Source of the DNA: Yuukianura sp. NJ FZ-2021
Taxonomy: Eukaryota
DNA: 64,000 bases
NCBI GenBank assembly: GCA_046563655.1
Contig: CM102289.1
Location: 8,308,001-8,372,000, forward strand
Direction of reading: 5' to 3'
The translations under genes and the position numbers were made by a program. Positions 22,618 to 54,100 of the stretch are shown here, in pieces. The notes beneath the pieces are model-generated. The model did no database searches. It was not told the DNA's origin and saw only the letters and a program-made list of their open reading frames with translations. Each line of letters opens with the position of its first letter. Position 1 is the first letter of the stretch.

Positions 22618-23114
22618 TTAACGTTTGCCAACATAGCCTCCTCCCATGCCACCGGCTCCAGCCGATGAAGAGGACATTGACATTGACTGTGACTGTGCTC
22701 CAGCAGCGCCCATTCCTACACCACCTCCGTATGGGACGTAGCCGTATGGTTGGACGTATGGACGTCCCCATCCTCCGTAGAAGCGTCCACGTCGGCGGTC
22801 ATTTCCGTAATGGCGGTAATCTGAAACACAAAAAAAACAGTTTAAGATTTAACTCAAAGTCAATTAGTGTCACTAAAATTTAGAATTTGGAATACAACAA
22901 ATTTTCCTGGAACTTTTCAAAATTTGAAATTTAGAATTTTGGAAAACTCACCATGTTCGCGGTCGTGCTCGCGATGGTCGTGTTCCTCATGGTCGTGTTC
23001 GCGATGGTCGTGTTCACGATGGTCGTGTTCGCGGTGTGAATTTGCTTCAGTCAAGACAATCAAAACGAAGACGGCGGCCAGCAAGGTCAAGACGACTTTG
23101 GATGAAAGAGCCAT
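22618..23114 (-). CDS. Small secreted His-rich / Gly-Tyr-rich prepropeptide (2 exons, 121 aa)
   Basis: Exon 1 is 23114-22952 (donor G|GTGAGT) and exon 2 is 22820-22618 (acceptor tgtgtttcag), with a phase-1 join. Protein: MALSSKVVLTLLAAVFVLIVLTEA-NS(HREHD)3 HEEHD HREHD REHDYRHYGNDRRR-GRFYGGWGRPYVQPYGYVPYGGGVGMGAAGAQSQSMSMSSSSAGAGGMGGGYV-GKR*. A TATA+Inr promoter lies upstream. Confidence 0.88.
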
Positions 23115-23213
23115 TTCGAATTTTGTGAAGTTTAAAAAATGTTTTTTGAGTAGAGCAACGTTAAGGTTGATGAGCGGAGCTGCTGTTAGCAAGTTGAGTG
23201 GTGACTTGGAAGT

Positions 23214-23250
23214 GAATGATTTGGCTAAGGGCCCTCTGCCCTTTTTATAC
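23214..23250 (-). promoter_or_regulatory. TATA box plus arthropod-type initiator for the His-rich peptide gene
   Basis: Minus-strand TATAAAAA at 23249-23242 and TCATTC (TCAKTY Inr consensus) with +1 A at 23217, about 32 nt downstream. This sits ~100 nt before the ATG. Confidence 0.7.
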
Positions 23251-26200
23251 CAAAAGGTCGCTCAAGTTCAAGGGTACACTTTTTTAGAACGTAAATTCCA
23301 AACAAAACAAGACAGAAGGCCAACGTTTACTAAAAGACAAGAACAATGCTAAGGTTTAGAATTTTCAGAATTACCAACAGCAAATTTCTAGTTTTGACAG
23401 GAAAAAACGTAGCCTACCCTCGTAAAACATTTTAAGAAATTCTAAAAAGAAACCAACTTTCCGGATTATTTTTATCACAATAACCTGAATGTCAAGAAAG
23501 GCCATCGCTTAAAACCAAAATCCATTTCAATGCTGGGTTTTTCTAGATAATTTTGCTTTGTTCTAAAAAAGAAACATATTTTATCCAATGTAAATTTTGA
23601 ATTTTTATATTTTTTTTTGAGTAGCCTAGGCTTATGAGGTTGATGAACTTAAATTCATTCCGTCTGCTTTAAGAATAAATCTGAAATAGAAATTTTAAGT
23701 TTTCACATATAACGTTTGCGCACATAAAAATGCATAAATGCAAGTTATTGAGATCTGTACCTAGCAATTTTTAACCATGAAATCAATTTTTTTTCATTTA
23801 AATGAACGATATAAAATATTAACATTAACATTTAGCCTTTCTCTTCAGCGCGAAATGGAATGTCGTGGTACGAATTTCATTTTCAAAGCGTTTTTATAGC
23901 GCATCGCTTCGAGTGAAGGTGACCTTAAGGTTTTTCTGTTTTATGACATCGGGAACATCAGATCTTTCCATCACAAAAACTAAAAACTGCTTGTGAAGCA
24001 TCATTTATAACAACCAAATTCAAGTTATGGCTTCCAATAAAACTCGTTTTTCTAGTCACTTTCAGTGGGCTTTAGCTAGAAAAGTAATCAAAATTGCACA
24101 GTAGCAACCAGAATTTTCCTTTATGTCTAAAAAATATGTCATGTCTGAAAAATATGTCAAAGCCTTTTATGGTTTAGCTTAGTTTACTAGTTCCAAAAAG
24201 CTTTTGTCTAAGTCTGTTCATGTCCTTTTAGTGATAAGTATCAAGCTTTTTCCATAAGGTTTTAGTTTCACGGTACACTGGGGTTTTGTGCTGAGTTGAC
24301 CTTTGTTCTAAGTTTCCTCATTTGGGAAAAATAAACGACCTTCCCATTTGGTTTACTTTAGCAAAAGAGAGAAAAAATAGCCTAACCTAAAGAAAGAATA
24401 GAGAAGGAAATGGATTTTTTGCTCGTTTTTTTGGGCCAAAGTGGATGTCGCTAACAATAAATAAGCGATTGGGTTTTGGGCTGAAGGAGGCAGAAAGCAG
24501 AAACTGTTGGGAGTTCATAAGTGAAAGTCTAACTGAGAAAAGCGTTCGCCTTTGGCTTCTCCGCCTGACTTTCACCAAGGCAGAAGCTCACTTGGGAACG
24601 GAGCTAGTTTCCTAGTTTCTAGGTTTCTAGAAAGTTAGGTTAGGCAGGAAAGAGAAAGTCCATGCCAATAATATTCAATGATTCCTTCCGTCGACTCGTA
24701 TGTCTAATAGGCGTATAACAAGGACCAACTTATAAAAGCCTCTTTTTCCACCCATCGCTTCACTTGCTCCACAATTCAATTCTCCATATAAACTTTTCCT
24801 TTTAGAAAAAACGGAAAGTGAAAGCAACTTTCACTGTTGCCTGGGCTTTCTCTGTGACCTTTCAACTTAGCCGTACAGCTTTTCCTTAGTGACACGTAGG
24901 ATTTAACCTCCTTTGTCAATATTGTACACTGTAGTAAGAAAGCTGTATCGATCCATTTTGATTATTTGAAATTTTGAAGAAAAAAAACTAGAAAAACTTT
25001 CTAAAAATCCTAAAAGCTGTAAACAACTTTTTTCTTGTCGGTTTTGTTGACGTTTGTATAAAATTTTGTCAACGATCCTAATTTAAGAGCGGCTGTATAA
25101 AAAATTTAGTAGCCGTGAACCGTAATTTTGGAGTTTAATTTTTGAAATCATAGTTTTGCATCCATGAAATTAAAAAAATTGGCAGTTTTCATATTTCTTG
25201 GGTATGAGGATTCAAAGCCTACAAAAATTTTAATTTAGGTAAGTGAAAAGTTATGAAAATCGGAGTTTTTGAGTGCTCTGGTTTTTCTTTTTTGATTTTT
25301 GTTTGAAATGTGAAGTTGGAGGCATCAAAATAATGAAAGTTTTTCTTTTCGGGTGAGAATGAATAGAGAATGAGGAGCCTATTAGAGGATATTCCGTGAG
25401 TTTTTGAAAAATCTCGACATTCAATTATTAGCTCACAGAAATGCGTAGGATAGAAACCATATCCATGGAGAATAGACTTCAAAAAGCAAAAGAAAACACT
25501 CGAAGAAGAAGAGTCAGCAGGTTTTTTCAGAGTCCTAGAAAAACTTTTTGCAAATTCTAGAATAACTTTTGAGGATTCAAAAGTTAGGAACTACTATAGA
25601 AACTATACGCCTTTTGTTAGATCCTCTTCTTTTAGTGCAAGCTGAAAAATATAAAACCAACTTTGAATAATAGGAACAGAATGGAACAAAATTCCTCAAC
25701 CACTTTTTGATCTTCCCACAACGGGAGTTCGCAGAAGCCAAAAATCAAATTAAGCCAATGCCAATGGCACTTTCACCAGCCTACTTTCACTCCATGAGCT
25801 CCTCACTTGAACAAATTTCCGTAAAGAAATTGCCAGCTCCTCAACTTTTGAGTAATAACTGAAGGGTGCTCCGTTGGCGCTCTCTTTTCAAATTTTGGGA
25901 TTTTGAAAAGCATTTTCAAAAACAAGCCTCAAAAGCCCTCCTTTCGAGGTTAGTCTTTACAATGTCTGAATGTAAATTGGAAAATAAGAAGATTAGTCTT
26001 TAGGCTCCGGCTGCCGTAAAATGGAAAGAGAAAATCCTCTAGTGACTTTCTCTTCAAAAATATTACGGTAAAACTTCTTATAGAAGCCCGGCCTTGCATT
26101 TCTATTTGGCGTTTTTTGTTTTTAAACAGAGCCGGATTTTATAGAGACCGATAATGAAATAAAGTTGGTTGTGATTGGAAACAGTCTTTTATTGGAAGTT

Positions 26201-35810: not shown

Positions 35811-36732
35811 ATGCTCGCTCTACTTTGCTTCTTCGTTGTTTTCACCGCTTCACTCCATCAAGGACAAGGTAACAAATCTTAAAATTTTAAAAGTTCCAAA
35901 AATTAAAAGAAAACATGGCTGGGAATTTTTCAGTGTAATTTATTTTTTTTTAACTTCCAGCTTTGCGTAATTTTCTGATTATTTTTTTGAAATGTTGAAA
36001 TATTCTTTTAAAGCTGTCGAAACCATGATTCCACTCTACGTTTATCCAAGTAATGGCGCATGGACACCGCTCATCGACGCATATAATGCACAAACGGAAA
36101 AAATTGGCGCATGGGTAATTGTTAATCCACGTAACGGTCCTGGCGACACCATTGATTCATCATACACCGAAGGAATCCAGACTCTGCGCAACGCCGGATT
36201 TAAACTTATGGGCTACGTCCATACTGACTACGGCAGAATTGACATCAACACGGTAAAGGCCGCTGTGTACAAATGGACAATATACTACGAAGGAATCACT
36301 GGAATTTTTGTTGACGAAATGGACAACGTTATGAGCGATAAAGCATTTTCATACTACAACGAACTCAACGACTATATAAAATCTAAAGGATTTGAATTTG
36401 CCGCTGGGAATCCAGGAACAGCTATTGCTAAGGGGCTGATCAACATCTTCGACACGACTGTCGTTTATGAAAACCGGGGATTTCCAAGTGATGCTCTGTT
36501 GGACCAAATTACTTTTCAAGGTCAAACGCCAGCCATTCCCGCCGATAAGTTTACAATCATGGCCTACAATGTTTCTAAATTGGACTCCAGCATGACCTAT
36601 GCTCTAGATAAAGTTGGTTACATTTATATGCAAACTCTGAATAACGATCCGTGGAACTACTTGCCTCCGCAGTCTTTTCTGGAAGATCAATTCCAATTTT
36701 ACGCAACCGGACAAATTCCAGATTCAAGCTAA
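35811..36732 (+). CDS. Secreted spherulin-4 / GH135-like glycoside hydrolase (2 exons, 258 aa)
   Basis: Signal-peptide exon 35811-35868 (MLALLCFFVVFTASLHQGQ, donor AAG|GTAACA) joins in phase 1 to 36014-36732. Spherulin-4 motifs IPLYVYP, VIVNPRNGPG, GYVHTDYG, GIFVDE, GNPGT and VVYE are all present. Confidence 0.9.
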
Positions 36733-37302
36733 TTTTTAGCATTTGACCTCGTGAGCTTATGTTGCCAGTGGTGTTGTATAAATTTGTGTTTAAAAAATAA
36801 AATCAGTGTTTTTTCTGCACTAGTCATGTGAATGAGTCAATTTTAATTAATTTCACTGGTTTGTCACCGTATCTGGGATTTTTTATCAGTTAGGTACGAA
36901 TTCGGTTCATGCGGGCATGATGTTAATATTGACATTAACGTCACACCGTTCAGTTCTACTAATAATAGCGCCGAGGGCGTTAGCTTTTGTCAGAAAGTTA
37001 ATGGATTTGGAAAAAGATTTTGATAAAACTGTTGATCTAAAGACAAAAATTGGTCAGATACTGCTGTAAGTATTGTGGCTCTCAACTTTTTACAAAACTG
37101 TTAAAAAGCTTAATGCATTGAATACCCTCCGCCAGTTACACGCAGGAAACCGCTTTTGCACAATTCTACTTTTTTTCCAAGAGAAAGTCTAAAAAGCTGT
37201 CGCAAGGTGAGAGAAAGTTTTCAATTGTTTTCATAAAACTATTTTTTTGTTTCAAAATTTGACTATTACGTAATTTGTTTGTTTTTATTTTTTCAGAAAA
37301 AA

Positions 37303-38001
37303 ATGAGTTTGTCGCATCAGGAGGATATGGTGCGGTTGCGAAAAATTTTCTACGGTGTTCTCTGTACCGGTTCCATACTTGGTGTCATCATGGTGACCTT
37401 GATGCTGGTCTACACTTTTCAGTACGGCGGTGGATGGAGCTTTAGTGACCCTGCAATGCGTATCAACATTCACATTGGCATGATGCTAATGTTCATGATT
37501 TATCTTCAAGGTCATGCGTCTTTGATCTTCCGGATTTTACCGAACACACCTAAAACTAAAGTGAAATTGGTCCACGGTGGACTCCATTTGCTCGGATGTA
37601 TTGGATGCTCCTTTGGATTTTACGCAGCAGTTTCAATCAACGACAATACACCGTATTCACTACATGCTTGGCTTGGATTTGCTGCAGTGTCGCTCTACTA
37701 CATGCAATTCTTGGCTGGGTTTATATCATTTCTGCCTCCAATGACTCCTTTGAATGTGCGACTATTTCTACTGCCAATTCATAAGGTTATGGGTCGAAGT
37801 ATTTTTACGCTGTGTTGTATTGCCGCTGCAACTGGACTTATGATGAAGGCAATTGGAACTTTCGGACTAACGTATTCATCACTGCCGAGTCCAGCACTCA
37901 TGTTCAACTTTGCTGGAATTTTTCTCGTTTGCTTTGCAATTATATTTGGAAATTTAATGGCTGATTTTCGCTTTCGTCGACCTGTAGAAACTACACGTTG
38001 A
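37303..38001 (+). CDS. Cytochrome b561 family transmembrane ascorbate-dependent reductase (232 aa, intronless CDS)
   Basis: Six hydrophobic segments and four heme-ligand His motifs (NIHIGMM, KLVHGGLH, YSLHAWLG, LPIHKVMGR). The ATG at 37303 follows acceptor tttcag (37296), and a 5'UTR intron donor is at 37207. Confidence 0.92.
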   Translation: MSLSHQEDMVRLRKIFYGVLCTGSILGVIMVTLMLVYTFQYGGGWSFSDPAMRINIHIGMMLMFMIYLQGHASLIFRILPNTPKTKVKLVHGGLHLLGCIGCSFGFYAAVSINDNTPYSLHAWLGFAAVSLYYMQFLAGFISFLPPMTPLNVRLFLLPIHKVMGRSIFTLCCIAAATGLMMKAIGTFGLTYSSLPSPALMFNFAGIFLVCFAIIFGNLMADFRFRRPVETTR

Positions 38002-41000
38002 AAAAAACTAGTTTATTTCTCAAATTTTGAAAATGTCGATCAGGGATTAATATTTCATTGTGTTTTAGTGTTAACAGTCACAATTTGTTTCAAAATTGAA
38101 AACTAGAAATAGAAATGGACATTTTATGTACAATTCCACCGGATTTTTGAGTTTTTAGTGAGGATCAGTTTTTATTTCATAATTTTAGCTAGAATTCGGT
38201 TGTTTCATTTTTTCGAGTAGAATGGATGGAAATTTTGGTTTGGTGGTTTTTTGAAAATCGGGAAACTGTTTTTTGAGCCTGCGTGAGGCAGGGTTAATCC
38301 AAATCCCCATGTAGCGATTTCATTATAAGCACTAAAGGATAGTCTCTATTCTTCTCCCTTCCCACACTCAAATCCTATGTTGGCTTTTGAGGATTACGAT
38401 TACGAAAAAAGAAGATTTTGCTTTCCCCTGACTCACTTTCTCATCCCCCACCACACAAAACTTCCATTTGAGAATTTTAGAAAAAAAGAAGAAGAAGGAA
38501 CCAATAAAAAACGGAAATAGAAACCGAATTCTTTATCTGCGGCGGAAATGAAAGATTCAGTTTGAATAAATTCCAAAATCTTACCAATTTAAGTTTTAAA
38601 CTTCTTCTTTATAAGATCACAGAATTTGTTAAACTTATATTATGGCGGTAGGCGCCAATTTTGAAAAAAGAACTGCTTTTTAAGAAAAATGAAAAAAGTG
38701 AAATTCGTATGTGCTGAAATGACTTTTGCTAAAGAATGAGAAATTTCACCGCCTCGTAGATTTTTATTTTTGTTTCAAGTTTCATCTATTTTGATGAGGA
38801 GTATTTGATGAAGCAATTCAGAAAATGTAAGGCTTCATTACATCAAATTTTTCATAAAAACTACTTATTTTTGAAACAGTGAAACCCATTTTTGGAAGGA
38901 AATTGCACACACCGGTTTCCTCTCCTGGCACTTTTCTGGGAAGTGTTCTCATAAAATATAAAATGAAACTGGACGATACTTCAAATAAACGCGCCTGTTG
39001 TGAGAAAGCACACGAGAGAAGGCTATAGTTATTAGGCAACATAAAATAAACTAGAAAGTTATGAGAAGCACAGTCGCGGGCAGTTTTGAAATTCTAAAGC
39101 GCACACTATTTTCAAAAACGACGTGAAGTAGGACTTGTATGGCGATGGTTTTTGACAAAAGTATCGCTACTTTTCAAAATTTCCATTTTGTTTAAAATGC
39201 AAGTCCAGACTCGTTCTCGGTCTATTTGCTCAACGGATTCACCATAGTCATCACTTTCCTCATTAGAACTGGCGTTACTTTCTCTCTGAGTTTCCTTTGT
39301 AGATACCGTAAAGCTTCCACTAATAGCCGGCCTCCAATGAAACCCGGCTTCCTATACAGGCCAGGTCCAAGGTTGTTTAAATCGTGTTTGTTTTTTCTTA
39401 ACAGGTTTTACCATAATTCCTTTTTTCAAATTTTTAAAGGTTAGTTTTTTGAACCGCACGTCGGACACGGTTACGTTGCTTAGCAACTTGAAATCAAAAC
39501 TATGACTCGGCGACGTTAAAATTCAAACATTTCAAAGCATTATTGAGAAAATCAGCAAAATTCTTCCGAAATTCCTCCAAAAGTTGTTTTTTTCTTGTTT
39601 TTGTTTTATGAAAAGTTAGAGATAAGGCATAACCTGTTACGGCATTTGTATAAATGTCCACTACAGCTACCTTGGGTAGCAAATATAAATAACAATCTAG
39701 CCAATTACTTTATGTTTTACGGTATTCCACAAAATTTAGCTACTTTTTGAAAAGTTAAGCGCCAAGCATCAGTCCCAGATGACTGATTCCTATGCGGTGG
39801 TCTGTAATTGGTAATCATTAGGCAGCGGCGGCAGGAGAAAACCGTGAATTTGTCCAGAAACCGTGGAAGCATCTGCTGGTTGTTCTTCAAGTTAGTTCCA
39901 CACAACTGAACTTCGTATGCAGTTCAAAGTCTCTCGGGACTAAAAGATCAGAAGAACAAGAACAAAGATGCAAATAGTCACTTGGAGAATATTTAAATAA
40001 TAAATTAGGCCTACACAACCATCTTAGACATTCAGATCATGTAAGTAACGGCGGCAGGGTTTGAAAATCTTCTACAGCGCCACATTTTGAATCTTCCCAC
40101 CACCACATGAGGGTTTGTCTAATGGAGATTCATTACTGAACCTTTGAACTTTGTAGCGTGAAAGCCTACCCAGTGTCCAAGGGGACCAAATTTCCGAAAT
40201 TTCTCCCCCATGCACAAAAATTTCAAATTTTCCACCTCTCTTGTTCTGTTACACGCATTTTCAGAAGTTCCACTAAGAATGTGAATAAGACAGATGTGAA
40301 TAGGAAATTTTGAAGAAAAAAAAAGTCGTTTTTGGAAATAAAGGAGGCTGGAAAATGCTTTCACTTTATGCCTAACTTTCTCCTTCACCCTCCTCGCCTC
40401 TTAACATTCGATTTGGACACATCAAGTTCTGCTGGACGTGACATCCCCCTTCCGTCGTCATTCTTCCCATGGACACGTCTAATTTCTCTTCATTGATGTC
40501 CACTTGGGGAAATTCAATTGGGGTCCATACAGTAGTAGGCAAGGAAGTTCAGAAGAAATGCAGAAAAAAAGTTGGATTGAAAAGAAAATGAGATTTCCCA
40601 TTGTGCAGGATTTACTTTCTCCCACATCCACTTTCACTTTCTCCAATCCCTTTTTCTAGCATAACCTAACCTTAACCTAACCATAGCCATAACCTATCCA
40701 TCCTCCCTCTATTCCATTCTCTAGAGTGTTCTGGACCCCCTGGTGGATCCACCGGGGTCACTTTTGGCACTTGGCGGCAGTTCCTGAGGTCACGCAGTGA
40801 TGTGTCATAGTTTTTCGAACCACTCTTGACACCCAAACTTACGCTCCATACTAATACACTAACTTTGTAAAAAAATGCAAACGTACTAAGATAAAAGAAA
40901 ACTAAAGTATACATAACTTTATTTGCGCTTGCTAGTACAGTTTTCCGAAAAAAAATTTCCCTTTATTGATTTTGTTCCTGTGCAAAGATCTTTGAAAAAA

Positions 41001-41359
41001 GAGAGGCGTCTTGTTTCTACATTTCAAAATCTAAATTTTGAAATTTGAGTGAAGCATATCGTTTGTCAATAAAAACTTAGAGGTAAAAATGCAGAAGCTG
41101 TGTTAAATATTAGGTACCAATGCCCAAGAAATTCGTTTGTTTTAGATTACTGGTGAATGTTCTCCGTAAGATTTATTTATTTTACGTAAGTTGGTGCTAT
41201 TTGCAATGATAAATCATCTTCCAAGAATTTTGAAATTGAGTCATGGTAGACAAAGCGACTCAACGACATTGGGTTTCGGTTTTGCTACTTATAACTTTAC
41301 TTGGATGCATTACAAGTTTATTCCAAAAACTAGCTTCAACGGAAACGCAGCAAGACAGA

Positions 41360-42901
41360 ATGAACTCTGGTCACATTTTGGCAATACTGACCATCATTAC
41401 GATCGTCGGTAAGGAGAAAAAACCAACAATATAAGAACCTTCGATACTCCGATTTGGAAAGCCTAAATTTCCAAATCATTTTGAATTTTTTGGTTCATGA
41501 ATATATAGGTATCGGGGTGGGTGCATTGCCGCGAACCGTTTCGGGTGTTTCAATTGGCACAAATGAAGGCGATGTAATCATCACGAGAAAGTCGTCGAGT
41601 AACGTACAAGTGACTTCGTCGAGTAACGTAAACGTGACTTCGTCGAGTAACGTAAGCGTGACTTCGTCGAGTAACGTACAAGTGACTTCCCGTCAACAAT
41701 CGTATATTACTAACCGCCACGGTAAGAAATGCCGGATAAATGGTTCCGCTTACGTCTCTGTGGTACAGAGCTTGCCCACCTCAATGAATACCCGGACGCT
41801 ATTGAACGTTACACAGCAAATCACAAATGGGAAGCTGTTACCTGGCGACATCATTTTGAAACCTGGTACCCATGGGGTGGGTGCAGTGCCAGAAGCCGCG
41901 ACGAATTATCCAATATCTCGGGACGATGTAATCACCAGGGCTAAGTTTTGGAGTAATTTGGGAGTTCCTTACAGTCAAACAGCGTATCATGCAGATCCCG
42001 ACGGAAAAGAATACCGAACAGATGACTCCGGTTACGTCGCTATGGTTTGGAAACTGCCGACTTACATGAATATCCGGATGATACCGTCCTTCACAAAACC
42101 AATCACAAAAAACCAGCTGTTACCCGGTGACATTATTTTGAAAGCTGGTACCCATGTGGTAATTTTTGACAAATGGGTAGATACTGCCAAAACAATGTAC
42201 TGGGCCTATGAACAAACACCACCAGCCACCAAGTATCACCAAATCAACCGGTACCCGTACTTGGGTCGCAGTGGTTACTATCCGTATCGATACTACAACA
42301 TTGCTCAAACTGATGCAGCGTAAGCGAAACAATACTAATATTATCTCATAATTATTTAAGTAATTGAAATAATACATTAAATTAAAAACACACTTAAAAA
42401 GTTTCTATTTGTAGAAGTACAACAACGCCTGCAAGTACTAGACCTTGCAGTTGCCCGCCATCGCCATTGAATGTTGCGACAAACAATGCTTCGTCATCAG
42501 TACTTTGTGCAACGGAAATGCAGGGAACTTGTGATCCAAAGGGCCTCTACTACTGTGCCTACCTTAATGGATGGAATAACAACCAGGGGTCCCTTAGCAC
42601 ACTTACTGTTTGCCAGGAAGGATGCTACTACTACTTGGGCAAGTCCAATGCAAGATGCAGGAACGAAGATTTTCAACAAATTATGGAAGATGCTCAAAAT
42701 AGAGCTAGTACGGGACGTCGATCTGCGGAATCAGGCTCGCAGTCAGAAGACGTTCAAGAAGGCGAGGAAGTTCCGTGTGACGATTTGCAATTTAGTGGGC
42801 AAAATGGCATGGGACCAAGCGGTGCACTTCGTCCACAAATTTTTCCAAAATTTTGTATTTTCATGCTTACAGTAGTGCCTAGTGTTTTCAAAACCTTTTG
42901 A
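41360..42901 (+). CDS. NlpC/P60-fold (actinobacterial-type) protein with catalytic Cys replaced by Asp, a partial N-terminal duplicate, a Cys-rich domain and a GPI-like tail (3 exons, ~448 aa)
   Basis: Exons are 41360-41408 (donor G|GTAAGG), 41509-42319 (donor GC|GTAAGC) and 42415-42901 (acceptor tttctatttgtag), and the phases are consistent. Signal peptide MNSGHILAILTIITIVGIGVGA. The domain ISRDDVITRAKFW...VPYSQ...YRTD[D]SGYVAMVWKL...LLPGDII...HVVIFDKW......YWAYEQTPP...YPYRY matches the YRxDCSGYVSMAW...LxPGD...HVxxF subfamily. Confidence 0.85.
41592..41689 (+). repeat. Coding 24-bp tandem repeat x4 (SSSNV[Q/N/S]VT)
   Basis: Unit tcgtcgagtaacgtacaagtgact repeated four times, varying only at the sixth codon. 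Confidence 0.95.
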
Positions 42902-44475
42902 ATTTGTTTGTATTACCTGTAGCGGCCACAGCTATGGTGGTTTTAAATTGTTTTACATCAACTTCACATTTGTTTCAGGCTTTTCACTAAAAAAGAATTT
43001 CCATTTTACGACACCATTTACTAAAAATTTTAAAAACAAACCATAAGTAGCCGATATAACTTAAACAGATTAAATATTCTTTATTTTATTTGTCGAATAT
43101 TTTCTTGGTTATCCAGAATTGAAATGGATATCAATAAATGAGTTCGAGTTTTTTTTAAAAATCTGTCAATTTAGAAATTTTTTTTTTTGAAAATTAAATT
43201 TTGAAAAGGTTTGCTCAAAAAAAAAATGAAAAAAGTACTCAGGTTAACTAGTGAATAAAAATAGTTCCTTAGACATTTGTGAATTAGAAGCGTGATTTTG
43301 AAAATTAAAATTTGTGAATTTCAGAATCGATTTTTCTGTTTTGACATTTGAATGAAACTAATCCTGGTGTTGAAGTGTTAAACGGCATGAAAGAGGGCGG
43401 CGGCAGGATATGAAATACGGAATCGGCACGCCGTGTCGCTTTTGCTCGTTTGTATCTATAAGCTATGTGTTATGCTACAAAGTCTAAGAATATTTCGGAG
43501 GGTGAAAAACGATTTAGAAAATTCATGGACCATTTAACAATACTTTGGTTGTACTTCCAAGTCTTTTTTTGCACCTCTTAAGGCTTAACGGAAATTGACA
43601 AGATGAATGCTTCGTATTAGGCCTCTTCTGGACACAAATTTGTGAGGAACAAAAAAAGCTAAGAGATTTCTAAAGTAGATTGAAACAGCAGAGACAAACT
43701 ACAAATTTTCTGCGAATTTTGAATTCACAAACAAGCGAACAAATAAATCTGTTGACGCATTCAGATTTTTCGTATGAAACTAAAGGAAACGAGTTTCATG
43801 AAATCTTTAACGAACTGAAAGCTTAGTTTGCATTCGCCAAAGATCACTTTCTTTGAAAAAGAAGAAGAAAAATTGGCAATTTTGATCTTTTGACAAGATA
43901 GTTTCTCTTGCTAACTAGGATTTTCTTTTATCAAAATTTCTAAGAAAACGCGCCTCCCTCGTTTGTAACTTTATTTTCTTCAACTCCATTAAATCTGAAA
44001 AAAAAAATCCTTCTTTTTCACTTTTTGAATTTTTTTTTTTGAAACTCACAAACCGATTATTTATGACTTATAGAGACAGAGTTCACAGCTTACAAAAATT
44101 CAAAAGAAGTCCATTCCCCTTTCATTTAAAAAAACTGTTTTTTCCTTTCTATCTTTTCACATCCATGACCTTAGCTTTCCCTATTTTGGCACAACAGACA
44201 ACAGCTTGTGAAAAAAAGCAAGTTCAGAAATTCAAATCCAATGTTTCAAAACTGAAAAACCCGCCTTCCGCTTCATGACACTTTATAAAAAAAGGAAATT
44301 TATTTTGTTGAGAATATTAAAACGTTGACTCAATAAAGTGCAAGTTAAACGCAAAAACAACATTTGACTTTCCCTTTTTCCTAAAGTGCGACGTATGTGA
44401 CATTTTGCGTACCAAAAACTGACAGATTTCTAGGACAATATTTCTTTTTTGTCCAACTGCCACTTTCCGCAAGAA

Positions 44476-45263
44476 CAGTCTTGTACTGTCTTCCGTCTTC
44501 CAGTCTTCACGTCTTCCGAAGAGAAACAGCTGATTCGTCTTCCAGTCTTCCGTCTTCCGTCTTCCAGAGATTGGTTCGTCTTCCGATCTTCCGTCTTCCG
44601 TCTTCCAGAGAATTTTTTGTCTTCCGATCTTCCGTCTTCCGTCTTCCAAAGAATTTTTTGTCTTCCGGTCTTCCGGCTTCCGTCTTCCAGAGAATCTTTC
44701 GTCTTCCGGTCTTCCGGCTTCCGTCTTCCAGAGAATATTTTGTCTTCCGGTCTTCCGGCTTCCGTCTTCCAGAGAATATTTTGTCTTCCGGTCTTCCGGC
44801 TTCCGTCTTCCAGAGAATTTTTAGTCTTCCGGTCTTCCAGGCAGTGTTTTGTTCTATAGTCTTCCGACTTCCATAGGCTGTTTTGTCTTCCAGTCTTCCG
44901 TCTTCCAAAGAATTTTTCGTCTTCCGATCTTCCATCTTCCGTCTTCCAGAGAATTTTTCGTCTTCCGATCTTCCGTCTTCCGTCTTCCAGAGAATCTTTC
45001 GTCTTCCGGTCTTCCGGCTTCCGTCTTCCAGAGAATCTTTCGTCTTCCGGTCTTCCGGCTTCCGTCTTCCAGAGAATTTTTAGTCTTCCAGTCTTCCGGC
45101 TTCCGTCTTCCAGAGAATTTTTAGTCTTCCAGTCTTCCGGCTTCCGTCTTCCAGAGAGTTTTTCGTCTTCCAGTCTTCCGTCTTCTAATCTTCCGGAAGT
45201 CGGAAGAATGAAGCCGGAAGACGTCTTCCATGGAAGAATCTTCCGGAAGACAGTACATCACTG
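44476..45263. mobile_element. Non-autonomous hAT-like element filled with a ~40-bp gtcttcc-based minisatellite
   Basis: 20-bp TIRs cagtcttgtactgtcttccg / cggaagacagtacatcactg (18/20 match). Perfect 8-bp TSD cgcaagaa at 44468-44475 and 45264-45271. About 16-17 internal units like gtcttccggtcttccggcttccgtcttccagagaatatttt. Confidence 0.88.
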
Positions 45264-48200
45264 CGCAAGAAGAAACTTTGTCTTTTCATTTTTTCAAAAA
45301 GCCACATTTTTGAATTTTCTTTTTTCAAAAAAAAAGTTTCAAGAGAATGTCGGCATCTTCAGCGGTGCTCTTTGTAGCGGAAAGGAAAAGTGAAAGTGAG
45401 TAAAGTCAGTTTTTTTTTCAGAGGTTTGAAGTTGGCTTTTTCCCAGAAAAGATTTACGCTGATGTCCCGTTTTCTTAGAAAAAGCAACTTTTTTTTTCGT
45501 TTTTCTTCAAAAATGATCTTTTGAAAAAGATGGGAACGGAAATGGTCACTTTCACTTTCACTGTTTTCTTCTAGCCTCCAAGGAGAAAGTTACAAGGGCC
45601 TTACACTCTCTCACTTGTGTAATATTTTACATTGAGTCATTCTGTTTTCCCTTAAGATTTCTTTTTCCTCATGGCCAAAACCTTGAATTCATTTTTTTTA
45701 CTCATGTTTTACTTTTTTGAAAAAAGGCGGCTAAGCAGTTACTTTTGCACCGCCTACCGTCTTAACTTTTCCTTTGTGCAGCGCGTCTTTTGTGTAGCAA
45801 TGCGTTTTTGTGCAAGCCAAACTTCTTACGAATTCAAAATCCAAACTTAACCGCTGGGCATCTGCCTTTGCCTTTTCAAGTTCAAATTTTAAGTCAAATT
45901 TTCCCGCGCTCCGTTGCCCCTCGGTTCTCTCAATTTCAAAATCATCTATTATACAAACATCCATGAAAGTTGAAACCACCCAACGAGAAACAGAGTTGCA
46001 AAGGATTTGAGATTTTTTTTGCTTTTTCAACAAAAATTTTAATGAAAATTTTGTGAATTGGAAAAAGAAAAAGAGGTTCTGTTTACTTTTTCTTTACAAA
46101 ACAGGAAAGTAGTCGGCGAAGAGTCCCCACGCTCATTTGAAATTTCGAGAGCTTCGTAGTTTTCCGCTTCCGCTTGTCGTTACTTCCAAGTCTTAAAATT
46201 TTATCGACTTGAAGTTTTAACTAAAAAGCAAAAGTAAAAGGAGTACTACACGGCCTACTTCAAAATAATGATTCAACTTCTTGTACTTCAGTCATTGGTC
46301 GTTTTGACTTTTTATGAAAAAACAAATTTCCGTAATTTCAGTTTAGTACTCCTAAAAATAATAAGTAGATGCAAGTTTTTATGAAAAACTTGTGTCTTTC
46401 TGTTTTCAATTTGAGAATGTTAACTTTCTTTAAAAAAAACTTTGAAAAGGGAACTGTTGTTACAAGTGAAACGTAAAAGAAAAACTAATTTTAGAAAACT
46501 TGAAAAGACTTTCAAAAGTTTGTCGTGTATTGGCCAATTCTTGTCATCCGTTTCTTTTGAAAAGAAAGTATTAATAGGATGCCTAAAAGGAAGTAAAATG
46601 ACAGATGGATCTTTCAAAAAGTAAAAAAAAAACGAAAACTGGCAACAAAAAAAGATGAGCGACGTGGGAGAGACATAGACTAGAGTTAATAAATTTTTTG
46701 CATCTCACAGCCCATAGTCTATACACTTTTGTTTCAGAAGATGAAAATGTAGAGGCGGGACTTTAAAAAAAAAGAAAGAAGTAAAAACTTTCTAATCCAG
46801 TTCAAGTAAGAAAGAAAACTTAAGGACATCAGAAACAAAAAAAGTTTTTGAAATTTGAAATGAAAGGGTTCCTTAAGTTAAGACAAAAAAAACTTTCTTT
46901 TTTTTTAAACTAAATTTTCCCTCCATTTTCTCAAGAGCTCATCCTCTCAATTTAGAATAAGATGAGAGAGAAAGTAAGGAACCACAATGAATTTTAGGGC
47001 AAAGAAAAAAAGAAGAGACAAAGGAGATAATACGTGATGCTTTCTTCCGTCTTCTACCTTTCTAAAAACTTAAATTTTGAACTTTTGAATTCCCCCGCCA
47101 GAACTCCCGCAACTGAAAATAAAATGTGGAAGGAGCAGAAGATGATGACTATTATCATTAGACACACCACTAGGAGGGAAACTTAAGTTTTTTTGATGCT
47201 CCTCTTAGGGGTTGCTACATGCTACAAAAAATTTTTTTTAGAAAGTTGAAAAGTGCTTTTTTTCGTTTTAAATTTACTCCCGCGACTTTCTCTTTCTTAT
47301 CTCCAAAGTCTCCCCCATCATTTCATCAGAAACTTAACTTCAAAAGTGACTATCAGGACTAGAATTAAAAGTTTAGAAAAAAGTTTTTCAAAAAAGTGCC
47401 ACTGTATCTCAAGCATCAAACTGTAAAAGCGAAAAGCGTCTTTTTAGTGATAATCTTTTAGGTTTAATACCGTAATGGATCCATTTCAGCTTAAAAAGTG
47501 ACATTTAATTCAGTTGCAATTTCAAAAAAATGTCAAAAAAGTTTTTTAAATAGGTAGAAATAGGTTAGAAACGTGTTTTTCGTGTTTTTTCAAAATTAAA
47601 AAATTTTGTAATAAGGCGACAAGGAAATATCTGCAGTTACAACAATGTTTTGGAGATCTTCAAAAATATTGTCAGCATTTCACATAACTTCCAGGCGAAA
47701 CATAAAATCCGAAATTTTGAAAAGTTTTTCAGGAAAAACTTATTACTAAAAATAACCAGAAGAATTAAGGTGCCTGTAAAAATTAAGAGGGGGAGAGTCA
47801 CATTATTGGATATTTATGACAAAAGTTTTCGGTGTTTTCTTTATGCCTTCTTTGGTTTATGGGCCAGAGATGATAAGGCTACTTTCACTGGATACTTTCA
47901 CCAGCTCGATTAACTTTGTCGTACATTCACCCAACTTTTACTCTTTTCTTCTTGTCGTCAACCATCTTTAGGATTCTTAGAAACCTAAAACACTGGAACC
48001 CACCATGGACCCACCGGAGCCACCAAAAGTTAAAGCACACATCATTATCTCAGAACCAAAAGACTATGAAACCCACCCACATTTCATTTCCACACAAAAG
48101 AAAACTTATCCTAATGAATTGAACCGAGCAATAAACCTTCTTTCTTAAGTTCTAAGCCTAGTCTGAGTATTTTCTTTCGTTTTTTTAACAAATGGATTCA

Positions 48201-48845: not shown

Positions 48846-49569
48846 ATGTTGCTCAAAACGGTGACAATTAAAACCAAAGCAAATAATATTAACAAGAGAA
48901 TGGAAAAATTACAAAAGCCAAAATTTGGAAAATTGAAAGTTTTTGTATTTTTAGGCTTTTAGCTGCACCTTATTCAAAAATGTGACACAAATGAACAAAT
49001 TGAACGCGATCCGAAAATTCAGTTTCGCGCCTCCACCACTGGACAAATACGTTCAAGTTTTGCCAATCATCAAATTGTCGCCAAATTATCCCAACGGTAA
49101 AATTTTACTTGGAAAATGGAATTATGGAAACTATCAAGGCAGATACACTGGACTCATTGAGAAAATGCCGGTTGACCCCAACGAGCCTCAAGATCAGTTT
49201 CGTTCTACACTGGAAAAATTTGCACAAAAGCTCGTTCCGGCTGAAATCCGGGGTTACGTTACGGATGTAGAATGTAAAGGAATTTTGAAATTCGACGGTC
49301 CACCGGATTCACTGGAGTACATTTGTGTCGCCAATGTCAAGAGTCTCATTGACATCAAAACAGTCACTTTTAACAAAGATTATCCCTACAACTTGGAGTG
49401 GTTTGATGTAAACCGAATTCCATTTGACAAGATGCCGGCAGATGACGAAATTTGGTATCCACTCATCATGCAACAAAAATACATCAAAGGATTCTTCAAT
49501 TTTGGTGGATTGGAGGCACGGTCAATCAAGTCGTATCACATTGTAGAGGTTACCGATTTGCAATTATAA
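48846..49569 (+). CDS. MTH1/NUDT1-like Nudix-fold protein with a degenerate Nudix box (probably 2 exons, ~209 aa)
   Basis: Main exon 48955-49569 follows acceptor ttttgtatttttag. Candidate first exon 48846-48860 (ATG..ACG|GTGACA, phase 0) is less certain. The C-terminal WFDVNRIPFDKMPADDEIWYPLIMQQKYIKGFFNF and N-terminal KILLGKW..G...GRYTGL resemble MTH1. Confidence 0.8.
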
Positions 49570-51156: not shown

Positions 51157-54100
51157 CTATTCCTTAGATTGACTATGAGACTGATACGATCCTTCTGATA
51201 TCTTGGCATTCTCCGCCTGACTTGACATGAACAGAAGCGATAACGCTTCCAGCGACTGTCTCACCTGAAAAGCCAAAATCAAAATTTCGAATCACTTCAA
51301 ACATTTTTCAAAAAACTGATTCCCAATTTTGTAAAATGTTCAATTTACTCTAATTATTTGCTGCAGGTTCATGTTGATGTACTGATGAATTTCTTCCGCT
51401 GAGCTCGAATGTAGTTTGTTTTGCCACAATAGAAGTTCTTGGTAAAATTGATCACTGAACAAAAAATAAAATTTTCGACTTTTTTTTAAAAATAGTTTTA
51501 AAAAAGTTTAAATTTTTTTCCAAAAAGGGTATTTCACCTGTCGCGAAACGTTGGATTATTGAGTGAGAGCTTGTCTTGTAAATTTGAGATCCGATTGAGC
51601 AGAAGTGCTGCTGATAGAAATAAAATGACTAGAAGTGCAGTTGCCAGTAGAATCAGAGAAGGACCTCGACCTTTGACCTCAGATTCAGTTGACTTTTTAT
51701 CTAAAACAAAATTTCAAAATTTCAAAAAAAGTTCAAAATTTGTCATTCCGGTGCTCAACTCACTAGAGAAAGTGGCGAGTGAAGCTACAGGATGATTAGC
51801 TTGGACAACAGAAGTCCGATGTGGGATGCGGGTGAATGTGGTTGATGTGCCTGTTGTAGCCGAAGTACTTGGCGCAGTGCCAACAATGGAAGCTGTGCTG
51901 GCGCTTGCGTGGAGCGGATGGAGGGATGCTACTGAGAGGCCTTTGAGGGAACTACTGCTTTGGGAACCAATCAAATTGCTCCGACCACTCGGACTACCCG
52001 GCAAATTTGAAGCTAAGGCTTTTGGCGCCGGGAGTTTTCCGGTAGAAGGCGAAGAGGGTTCAATTGTAGAGTCATTGCCGCTTCCAGACTCTGCTGAAGA
52101 TTCGTCTGGAACGCTGAGGTCACCGCTACATTTGTCCTCTTCCTTCAGTTTCTATTTGAACAAAATTTTCAAAAAATTAATCTAAAATTTCAAAATTTGG
52201 ATTCTTATGTCTTACACTTGTGATTTTCAGAACTTCTTTGGCCTCTTGATCGATACTGTAGTTCCAGACTTTGCACATCAACTTGTACGTAGTGTCACGC
52301 GACAGAAGGGACGCAAAAACATGCTTTTCGGATCTCGTGCAGATTCCCACAGCATTCGGAATGATTTTTGCCGTGCGTTCTTTCGTAATTCGAACAACGG
52401 AGCAAACTGGAATAAGAAGCTGAAAGAAAAAAAAAGTGTAAAATCAGTCAATTTTTCAGAAATTTAAAAAAAAATCTTTATTTCTTTCCTAACTCTTCTA
52501 ACTTTCATTTTTTTTTGAATTTGAATTTAATTTTTTGAATGGTATGCTGACGCAGGCAGTTGCTTAACACCACAATGAAAATTATTCCATGACTAAAAGT
52601 TGAAGTCGTAAAAAATCAATCTCGTGAATAATTGATGTTTTTAGTACCTTTGTGACGTATCCAAAAACATTGGAATAGAATGCAAAATTATTTTCTGTAA
52701 TGTAGAGATATCCTTGAAGCAAAATATCTCCAACTAGGGCGCAAGAGTAATCTGAAAACCAGAAATTTGTCAATCAATTTTGAAATTTCAACTTTTTTGT
52801 TCAAAATTCTTTAAAAAATTGTCTAAACTTACAGTCAAGTACTTTTTCATCTGGAGCAACCGTTTTGAAATGACGATGAAATTTTTTCTGTCGTGATTTG
52901 GATGAGCTTGGAGCCAAAGTCAGTTCAGAGTCGGATCCCATTGCTCTCAAATTCGTCTGAATTGCTGGAGCACTAGCACTCAGATGCTTGAGGGATTGTC
53001 TGCAAATAAAATCAAAAATTATATTTTTAGTACTTCTTTTCCTCATTTCTTCTCAAAAGTCAATTTCAGAAAACTTCCACAAAATCCAGTGTTTGACATA
53101 TCAAGTGATCTGCAAGAGAAAATCTAACCTTGAGTTCCCACAACCCTCGTAATAATCGTAAACATGTCGCCTAGTAACGAACTAGTTTACAGACTTAATA
53201 ACCCCCCATTCTACTTTTGGGGTTTGCAAAAACAAAGGATTTGCATTTGCGAATTTTTACACCCAAAACTTGCAAATTTTAAGCAAACAATCAACACTCC
53301 AGGGAAGAAAACACTAAGAAATTTGCGCCAGCAATTCAAGTTCCAAGTGAATAAAATTCTGGTTTTTCAAAAAGGAAAAATTAAAAGTTGTTCCAAGGTT
53401 AGCTTGCGGACAACTTGCATGTCAAGTCTGAAAAACTTTTTCTTCAAGTTCTAATTACACTTGTGAATTTTTAATTGTTAGTTTCATTTCCTAAATGGTT
53501 TTTAGCCTAACAAACTAACCTAACAAATAGTAAGACATAATCCACCATACTTCTAATCCATAACTTCGCTTTTACTTATACTAATCCCCATGCGTTAATT
53601 TTCAAAATCCATTTTTCACTATGGTCTTAGACTTTTAGGCTAAGAAGGAATCACGAAATTTTAGGATAAAAATTGAAATTGAATTTTGTCTAAATTCAAA
53701 CTAACAAATTTGATGTTTCCAGAAAATGCTGAGCATTTTGCACTTCGAATCCATTTTCGCTTCCTCCTCCACTGCCGCTTTCCTGCTCTTCCAATCGCTT
53801 GCTGGACTTCCACTTTCGCATCTTGGTTATTGTCACAATCACGTTTTTTAAATTGTTCAGTTTCATTCAAGTCCATTTATATCACTGAACGAACACTTTT
53901 ATAGAATTTTTTTTTGAAATATAAACAAACCGCAACAGGAAAATTTCGGATTTTACTAACTTCCAAGAAACTTTCTAATTTCCAACTCTTCCTGGAGCTT
54001 TAGTTTTTCCAGTAACTGTGTTACTGGAGCTGCAGTGTCCTCACTATTAAACTACGCGACTAACATAACCAACTGCTGAAAAGCATATGTTATACGTCAT

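Follow-up and report, generated by a model that had tools for sequence, protein, structure and literature searches.

A spliced and expressed eukaryotic gene encoding an NlpC/P60-fold domain with aspartate at the nucleophile position

The window, by which we mean the whole 64,000-nucleotide stretch of DNA that was analysed, contains a real eukaryotic gene that is transcribed and correctly spliced, and whose central domain, judged by sequence relationships and predicted fold, descends from a bacterial, Actinomycetota-centred family of NlpC/P60 cell-wall endopeptidases. The evidence supports a horizontal origin of this domain and the loss of its catalytic thiol. There is about an even chance, in our estimation, that the product is a retained surface glycoprotein in which the former enzyme domain now serves as a fast-evolving binding or scaffold module. 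The features on which the argument is built are as follows:

41360..41408, plus strand: exon 1, with ATG at 41360 and 16 codons plus 1 nt encoding a hydrophobic leader, followed by a phase-1 intron (sequence and gene model)
41409..41508, plus strand: intron 1, 100 nt, GT..AG, skipped in an X4 contig (41407 to 41508, cut +1)
41509..42319, plus strand: exon 2, a degenerate half-domain repeat and then a complete NlpC/P60-like domain, in an open frame of 270 codons
41514..41878, plus strand: degenerate tandem copy of the domain's N-terminal half, ending at GTH, with Gly (GGT) at the nucleophile position
41592..41689, plus strand: 24-nt tandem repeat in 4.1 copies within the duplicate (TRF: period 24, 91% matches, no indels)
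41880..42317, plus strand: NlpC/P60-fold domain of the Actinomycetota-centred YRTDCSG...HVV.F...YEQ family (phmmer, AF2, Foldseek and family profile)
42024..42026, plus strand: nucleophile column, GAC (Asp) in YRTDDSG, two changes from TGC
42153..42155, plus strand: catalytic His column, CAT (His), aligned to the HV of Spr
42210..42212, plus strand: presumed third triad residue, GAA (Glu) in YWAYEQ, GAC (Asp) in X4
42320..42414, plus strand: intron 2, 95 nt, GT..AG, phase 2, skipped in an X4 contig
42415..42901, plus strand: exon 3, with S/T/P linker, nine-Cys module, acidic stretch, SGA plus spacer plus hydrophobic tail, and stop (translation)

The three-exon model predicts a product of 448 residues, encoded by 448 codons without an internal stop, and an open frame as long as the 270 codons of exon 2 would arise by chance with a probability of about 4e-9 at the base composition of the window. 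Both predicted junctions are joined exactly in contigs of X4, one of four sequencing runs (X1 to X4) that come from one sample and one study and are not independent: 41407/8 is joined to 41508/9, and 42319 to 42415. The latter junction, for which the initial annotation had named a lack of reads as refuting, is bridged by a contig with 98 nt on its shorter side. X1 to X3, unlike X4, run on through both introns; X4 shows zero depth across the 5' flank and intron 1, and 4.55 in the bin that covers most of intron 2. The library type of X4 is listed as 'DNA?', and from its coverage we infer that X4 is RNA-derived. Because X4 depth is 0 at 41200-41321, coverage starting in the bin 41322-41382, the covered transcript does not extend to an in-frame upstream ATG at 41243. 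The removal of both introns in X4 bears out the earlier view that this is a real eukaryotic gene, and everything previously read from its sequence (introns, signal exon, S/T linker, Cys-rich module and tail) checked out.

Neither Pfam nor NCBIfam recognises the window protein itself; its assignment to NlpC/P60 rests on HMMER matches to its relatives, on the family profile and on the predicted fold. Searches with the protein itself found no match to PF00877 even at E<=1, and nothing usable in Pfam, NCBIfam or the PDB sequences. Its relatives are readily found: phmmer with the domain returned 1698 proteins with E values of 1e-3 or below, the best being 1e-37, and with identity to representatives of up to 56%, and a scan of GTDB with alignment A1 yielded 597 confirmed loci, 80 of which were kept; these are 38-49% identical to the domain and mostly from Actinomycetota. 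Of 95 aligned relatives, 56 match PF00877 with an E of 0.01 or below (6.5e-7 at best), and the family profile matches Spr/MepS with an E of 1.1e-4, bringing the DCSG and HV motifs into register. The AF2 model of the domain has a pLDDT of 93.9 and a pTM of 0.88; in Foldseek its leading matches come from NlpC/P60 or CHAP chains (E of 4.7e-4 at best, TM 0.55-0.69), the top-ranked structures being NlpC/P60 autolysins, Spr/MepS, YkfC and RipA/B/D. A tree of 121 rows places the window protein within the family and pairs it as sister with L081 (SH-aLRT 97), a metagenome contig that carries the only orthologue found. With relatives that are overwhelmingly Actinomycetota and include some microbial eukaryotes, the bacterial-type origin that had been claimed for the gene stands. 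A single-protein contig scan confirmed 0 of 90 candidate stretches.

Loss of the nucleophile, likewise claimed from the sequence, is upheld by the family alignment, in which the corresponding column holds Cys in 145 of 149 representatives, Ser in 3, Ala in 1 and Asp in none; Cys also occupies it in 11 of 11 word-search matches. The 82 of 82 Cys obtained in the alignment A1 scan are uninformative about Cys frequency, because the search pattern itself included the Cys. At the nucleophile codon none of the four runs shows TGC: X1 to X4 differ nowhere from the GAC of the window, both forms of the gene present in X4 included. His is found in all 149 representatives at its column, whereas the third triad column has Glu in 138 and Asp in 3 of the 149. 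The initial annotation had both His and Glu retained; His is, and Glu is kept in the window and in X1 to X3 but not in the sole X4 contig that covers 42212, where A>C turns it into Asp. The active-site neighbours Y45, R46, D48, S50, G51, H92 and E/D111 (domain numbering) are kept, and these neighbours and the His are retained in both expressed forms.

The second of these forms, an allele or a paralogue, is about 9% divergent from the first and is covered to similar depth in X4 (44.6 and 43.5). Both have Asp at the nucleophile. Over 85 codons, dN/dS between them is 0.74-0.81, which is indistinguishable from 1 (Fisher p 0.61) and above 0.3 (p 0.017), at a pS of 0.116 that rests on 6.5 synonymous differences. 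The window form alters nearly invariant positions (S54A, T65I), and the other expressed form alters the conserved GDI-I/L-L strand. Between the window and L081, the domain has a dN of 0.34 against saturated synonymous sites; the saturation means that no dN/dS is given for this pair, and the comparison itself suggests long-term constraint on the domain. When substitutions were simulated without indels, the 448-codon frame survived with P 0.066 at 4% and 0.024 at 6% change. The gene thus appears to be kept open and expressed under selection while the sequence of its domain is weakly constrained.

Exon 2 also contains a half-domain duplicate with a 24-nt repeat, both absent from the initial annotation. 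In local DNA and protein self-alignments the duplicate aligns to 41873-42160, and over 189 ungapped nt it is 69.8% identical to the domain (dN 0.33-0.35, dS 0.51-0.61). The repeat encodes SSSNV(Q/N/S)VT units with N-x-S/T sequons, which makes it a Ser/Thr/Asn repeat of glycosylation type. Both X4 forms (records 17 and 18) carry the duplicate, whose 94 codons would stay open under simulated neutrality with P 0.04-0.18 at 15-30% change. Such a duplication of half a domain within one protein is unusual for a module that still works, and it counts against the reading of a retained module.

The first alternative to consider is that the gene is decaying yet still transcribed, the hydrolase having become useless once its nucleophile was lost, and that the open frame is a survivor, picked because it is intact. 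We regard this as unlikely on balance. The earlier account had named a dN/dS near 1 or absence of expression as the mark of a decaying pseudogene: the ratio between the expressed forms is indeed indistinguishable from 1, but the gene is expressed and its frame is open. Decay would also fit the changes at nearly invariant positions, a third triad residue that varies between Glu and Asp, the internal partial duplication with its repeat expansion, and the state of the only orthologue found, which is broken. In L081 the nucleophile codon is lost to an 8-nt deletion that also causes a frameshift, and a premature TGA stands at the ninth Cys column. Against decay are the 448 open codons with canonical splice sites in use, the low survival of such a frame in the neutral simulation (indels aside), a duplicate that is still open over a dS of about 0.55, the even coverage of the two forms, and the conservation of His and the active-site neighbours in both; the long open frame in particular argues against a dead gene. 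If the gene is decaying, it clearly illustrates how a horizontally acquired gene ages: still spliced and expressed, no longer active, and disrupted in its sister lineage.

For a retained surface glycoprotein, the reading that we prefer, the two ends of the protein are informative. The leader, in which the strongest hydropathy window spans residues 6-20 (Kyte-Doolittle mean 2.84), has a similar counterpart in L081 and would be expected to direct the protein into the secretory pathway. At the C-terminus, SGA is followed by about 8 residues and then by a hydrophobic tail that runs to the end (by inspection), an arrangement also present in L081; on these grounds a GPI anchor that holds the protein to the outside of the plasma membrane is plausible. 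The nine Cys of exon 3 all lie ahead of the hydrophobic tail, and the other eight of the nine, leaving aside the column of the premature stop, are conserved in L081, which also shares the exon-intron structure (intron 2 at the same position and phase) and has Asp at the third triad position. Searches with the C-terminal module found no Atlas match, no family match, no significant hit among 530 candidates in longer proteins, and, in a comparison with the Cys-rich tail of P0014, no similarity (E 7.5); its AF2 model, with a pLDDT of 34.5, is unusable.

Because the thiol is absent, a protein of this kind would no longer be capable of papain-type cleavage of gamma-D-Glu-diamino-acid bonds. Since the active-site neighbours are kept, a ligand resembling a stem peptide may still be held in the groove, as in the non-catalytic RipD. 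Recognition of bacteria is a possible, hypothetical role, and peptidoglycan binding or pattern recognition is made less credible by the weak recent constraint. A bolder proposal is that an animal lineage acquired an actinobacterial-type NlpC/P60 endopeptidase and turned it into a GPI-anchored, non-cleaving receptor for cell-wall peptides, the near-neutral dN/dS reflecting diversifying selection at the binding face and not decay; this seems to us improbable. Were it true, it would parallel the amidase-to-sensor history of the PGRPs on a papain-like fold, and should the protein bind peptidoglycan, it would show that cell-wall enzymes have given rise to cell-wall sensors a second time, independently.

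Several known systems resemble parts of this picture. Non-catalytic PGRPs, the analogy put forward in the initial annotation and in some cases membrane-bound, are an amidase fold turned peptidoglycan sensor, a function that has been shown; they differ from the window protein in fold and are not homologous to it, and a sensor role for the latter is hypothetical. Domesticated amidase effectors, among them tick Dae2, are bacterial cell-wall-degrading enzymes of the papain-like superfamily that were transferred to animals and are used in immunity; Dae2, however, is catalytically active and is a member of the Tae family, not of the family considered here. The laterally acquired NlpC/P60 peptidoglycan hydrolases of Trichomonas vaginalis are likewise used at an interface between eukaryote and bacteria; by their description they are active enzymes of a protist. 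In house dust mites, LytFM is an NlpC/P60 endopeptidase that is secreted via a leader and horizontally related to proteins of actinomycetes and ascomycetes, and its D. farinae gene has an intron after the first 16 leader residues, much as exon 1 in the window ends after 16 codons; the mite protein, however, has a single domain of about 14 kDa in which the catalytic Cys is retained, and its reported triad of Cys42/His93/Asn105 is spaced differently from C49/H92/E111 here (PMC4600878). RipD (Rv1566c) of the actinobacterium M. tuberculosis (PDB 4jxb, 4lj1), reported to be without hydrolase activity and adapted to peptidoglycan binding (PMC6628586), shares with the window protein an NlpC/P60 fold whose catalytic site has changed, in the latter from Cys to Asp. 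RipD differs, however, in being bacterial, in acting on the cell's own wall, and in having no signal exon, introns, Cys-rich module or GPI-like tail; it matches the window domain only at the level of fold (Foldseek rank 27, E 8.8e-3, 16% identity), and binding by the window protein is hypothetical. It is already known that transferred cell-wall hydrolases act as active antibacterial enzymes in eukaryotes and that non-catalytic NlpC/P60 proteins exist in bacteria (RipD). A literature search for a eukaryotic, surface-tethered, thiol-less NlpC/P60 protein found none.

It is very unlikely that the protein is still a hydrolase, in which Asp, an Asp-His pair or the water that they activate substitutes for the thiol to give a surface-tethered cell-wall or gamma-glutamyl peptidase. 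Such a role would agree with the retained His, with Glu or Asp at the third position, and with the tolerance of non-Cys residues in four of the 149 representatives, one of them from a named Streptomyces. It accords poorly with a nucleophile residue that no relative shares and with a sequence constraint too weak to suit a maintained active site. Moreover, NlpC/P60 enzymes of the papain fold are thiol-dependent, and a carboxylate is not expected to form an acyl intermediate in such a geometry.

Finally, an artefact in the form of bacterial contamination, faulty assembly or a miscalled base in the nucleophile codon, suggested by the bacterial nearest named relatives and by the common origin of all four runs, is close to refuted by the two GT-AG introns spliced out in X4, the eukaryotic neighbour genes in DNA of 32-45% GC, the same intron positions in L081 (an unrelated metagenome contig), and the presence of GAC in X1 to X4 and in the second, divergent form. 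The locus is flanked by a cytochrome b561 gene on one side and by other eukaryotic genes on the other; a neighbouring gene that we take to be of LRRNT-LRR-LRRCT-TM type probably points to a metazoan host. A cytochrome b561 search yielded no matches. An Rfam search of the window gave 0 matches and a tRNA scan 0 genes; among 129 further ORFs (>=75 aa), Pfam had one match, a GRAM exon.

The NlpC/P60-type gene proved to be organized as the initial annotation had claimed, with two GT-AG introns (100 nt and 95 nt) and 448 codons free of stops; from the base composition of the window, an open frame of 270 codons is expected with P ~4e-9. The exons of the gene model are:

41360-41408, plus strand, exon 1
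41509-42319, plus strand, exon 2
42415-42901, plus strand, exon 3 (short S/T/P linker, a module with nine Cys, then a hydrophobic tail)

All nine Cys lie upstream of the tail, which runs in the order SGA, spacer, hydrophobic residues. Four sequencing runs from one sample and study (X1-X4), none recorded as RNA, cover this stretch and were compared over 41200-43000. In X1-X3 both introns are read through, and the loose ends of X3 start at GATC sites. In X4, depth is 0 at 41200-41321 and 41444-41504 and 4.55 at 42359-42419, and its contigs join 41407 to 41508 (cut +1; 100 nt skipped, GT..AG) and bridge the 42319 to 42415 junction, at which a lack of reads would have counted against the annotation (95 nt skipped, GT..AG). 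We infer that X4 is RNA-derived, despite its recorded type of ‘DNA?’. A processed DNA copy would also yield joined forms, but is unlikely because X1-X3 contain none and X4 lacks cover of the introns and flank. Since transcript cover begins after 41321, the in-frame upstream ATG at 41243 falls outside the transcript, and 41322-41360 is without an ATG.

The encoded domain is of NlpC/P60 fold and family, as claimed, though its sequence misses the Pfam threshold: sequence searches of Pfam, NCBIfam and PDB returned no match to the protein. The assignment follows from its relatives and its predicted structure. A word-based search gave 11 relatives (32–44% identity, Cys in 11/11), and an exhaustive phmmer search with the domain gave 1698 proteins at E<=1e-3, 804 at <=1e-10 and 6 at <=1e-30, the top one at E 1e-37 and 56% identity. 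A GTDB genome scan, whose pattern included the Cys, confirmed 597 of 603 candidate stretches; the 80 loci kept (36–49% identity) are mostly from Actinomycetota, among them Lentzea, Saccharothrix, Prauserella, Streptomyces, Brevibacterium and others. Together with the named eukaryotic members (Pedospumella, Clastostelium and two ‘Eukaryota sp.’ isolates), this bears out the description of an Actinobacteria-type family with some microbial-eukaryote members. PF00877 is matched (E<=0.01) by 56 of 95 aligned family members, the window member matching nothing; extra domains among the 95 are PG_binding_1 in 4 and GH25 in 1. The family profile picks up Spr/MepS (E 1.1e-4), DCSG and HV falling in register, and an AF2 model of the domain (pLDDT 93.9) is closest in the PDB to NlpC/P60 autolysins, Spr/MepS, YkfC, RipA, RipB and the non-catalytic RipD.

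The motif YRTDDSG, with GAC at 42024-42026, is present as first read, and X1-X4 give no difference at that codon where reads with TGC had been considered. To place it within the family, domain matches were aligned to the family HMM, and a cut-off of 90 or more model positions retained 149 of the 150 representatives listed.

Residues at the catalytic columns of the family alignment (n = 149 representatives)
Nucleophile (domain residue 49): 145 Cys, 3 Ser, 1 Ala, 0 Asp; window, Asp
His (domain residue 92): 149 His; window, His
Third position (domain residue 111): 138 Glu, 4 Ser, 3 Asp, and 1 each His, Thr, Gln and Ala; window, Glu

The Ser-bearing members include one from a named Streptomyces and one from a ‘Eukaryota sp.’ isolate. 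By eye, the window departs from the family at 3 of 17 nearly invariant alignment columns (C49D, S54A and T65I). Of the two residues said to be retained, the His stands (42153-42155) and the Glu stands only in part: it is present in the window at 42210-42212, but 42212 A>C makes it Asp on the sole X4 contig there, a change seen in X4 only, and Asp likewise occupies this position in the orthologue described below.

The initial annotation missed a degenerate tandem copy at 41514-41878 of 41873-42160, with a clean junction, which repeats the N-terminal half of the NlpC/P60 domain up to GTH. Inside it lies:

41592-41689, plus strand, 24-nt repeat x4.1 (Ser/Thr/Asn-rich units with N-x-S/T sequons)

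The two copies share 69.8% identity over 189 ungapped nt (dN 0.33–0.35, dS 0.51–0.61), and where the nucleophile would stand the degenerate one carries Gly (GGT). A weak parsimony argument suggests that the Cys was lost before the duplication, since TGC to GGC beforehand, followed by GGT and GAC, takes three changes versus four for independent losses.

The sole close relative is carried by a 5496-nt metagenome contig, L081, with which the window shares the signal-peptide exon and its phase-1 intron, the domain exon, a phase-2 intron at the matching position, the Cys-rich exon and the tail of SGA, spacer and hydrophobic residues; the L081 gene lacks the internal duplication. Identity is 57–58% in the domain and 41% in exon 3. 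With synonymous sites saturated, dN values of 0.34 and 0.59, respectively, place most of the shared history under constraint. The L081 gene is broken: 8 nt are missing exactly at the window's GACTCCGG, so that the nucleophile codon is gone and the frame shifted, and a TGA stands at a conserved Cys codon of the window. Because only one contig carries this orthologue, both lesions are possibly assembly errors. L081 shares no synteny with the window neighbors; at its end (3-266, minus strand) is an open frame resembling, by eye, a GNAT-type acetyltransferase.

A quick IQ-TREE analysis (SH-aLRT only) comprised 121 rows: window, L081, 32 of the 80 loci (one per genus), those representatives among P0014-P0090 that passed the domain filter, and 11 extra; not included were P0019, being the L081 gene itself, the other loci, and P0091-P0163 for the most part. 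Window and L081 are sisters (SH-aLRT 97) inside a weakly supported 12-row set (85, unstarred) with eukaryote-looking sequences including Pedospumella, itself nested within a broad Actinomycetota radiation. The end branches are 0.45 for the window and 0.69 for L081, the window's being no longer. The tree would fit a bacterium or another eukaryote as donor and cannot say which.

Recent evolution can be read from a second form in X4, on contigs at 41950-42208 (24 differences; depth 44.6 vs. 43.5 for the reference form), 41508-41639 (10 differences) and near 41691-41737 (6 listed). Both forms keep GAC at the nucleophile. The second form was not seen in X1-X3; possible sources are an allele from a different individual and a paralogue whose long DNA contigs fall below the 90% likeness threshold. 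The listed differences change 23 codons by replacement and 9 silently, with four further outside the count. The 85 codons with full phasing have Sd/S of 6.5/55.8 and Nd/N of 17.5/199.2, giving a dN/dS of 0.74 (NG86) to 0.81 (YN00); this ratio exceeds 0.3 (binomial p 0.017) and is indistinguishable from 1 (Fisher p 0.61). Of the two signs by which the annotation would have recognized a decaying pseudogene, a ratio indistinguishable from 1 was found over these codons; the other, a lack of expression, was not, with X4 read as RNA-derived. Elsewhere, 42661 G>A is silent (AGG to AGA) in X1 and X4, and the X1-X3 DNA contigs all break at ~42675-42710, where depth goes up two- to three-fold, pointing to a segment that is short and either repeated or heterozygous.

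Three observations cast doubt on function: replacement in the domain is close to neutral, the third triad residue is polymorphic, and the orthologue is broken. Favoring it are expression, correct splicing, similar cover of both X4 forms, and retention in both of the His and the residues flanking the nucleophile. Moreover, the 448-codon frame is still open, as is the much older duplicate; under substitutions alone, the probability that such a frame survives is 0.066 at 4% change and 0.024 at 6%, and about half of the change (pS 0.116 between the two Asp-bearing forms) falls to each lineage. On balance, the whole protein is probably still of use, its former active-site domain being only weakly constrained. 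It would be secreted and probably GPI-anchored, and its Asp-bearing domain should be incapable of thiol-dependent cleavage; the domain may hold a ligand in the manner outlined for RipD (PMC6628586), a bacterial NlpC/P60 protein known as non-catalytic. The proposed role in pattern recognition is possible, though unlikely. Horizontally acquired NlpC/P60 enzymes outlined for dust mites (PMC4600878) and, reportedly, for Trichomonas are active; within the limited collection of literature searched, no eukaryotic, thiol-less, surface-tethered member was found.

The neighbors of the gene are eukaryotic:

9394-12174, plus strand, LRR_8-rich transmembrane protein (E 5e-31; at least 2 exons, N- and C-terminal cysteine caps), with an LRR_8 transmembrane frame at 10171-12174
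37237-38001, cytochrome b561
52180-52443, GRAM exon (Pfam)

In the LRR gene, the cysteine motifs (LRRNT and LRRCT), and with them the capped, membrane-spanning architecture, look metazoan to us. At 35971-36732 (plus strand), 4.6 kb upstream of the NlpC/P60 gene, a single 253-aa open frame matches Pfam Spherulin4 (PF12138, E 3.2e-43), a family that is mostly bacterial, fungal or slime-mold, and may be a second gene of foreign origin. A 204-aa open frame at 48955-49569 (plus strand) has no Pfam match; by Atlas features it neighbors clusters of NUDIX hydrolases, chiefly from Actinomycetota (158 features in common at a score of 0.93), a lead toward a possible third bacterial-type gene nearby. For ~1 kb at 44317-45393, several frames stay open on either strand; the peptide units encoded are repetitive, basic and acidic, the skews are strong (GC -0.20, AT -0.20), Pfam gives no match, and the region is probably a tandem array. 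The open frame at 22917-23261 (minus strand) has HREHD-type His/Glu/Asp repeats, with SCSRW repeats on the opposite strand and no Pfam match. A short CCTAA/TAACC-type repeat at 40660-40701 (TRF periods 6, 11 and 17) resembles an interstitial TTAGG-like telomere motif, at a length too short for taxonomy.
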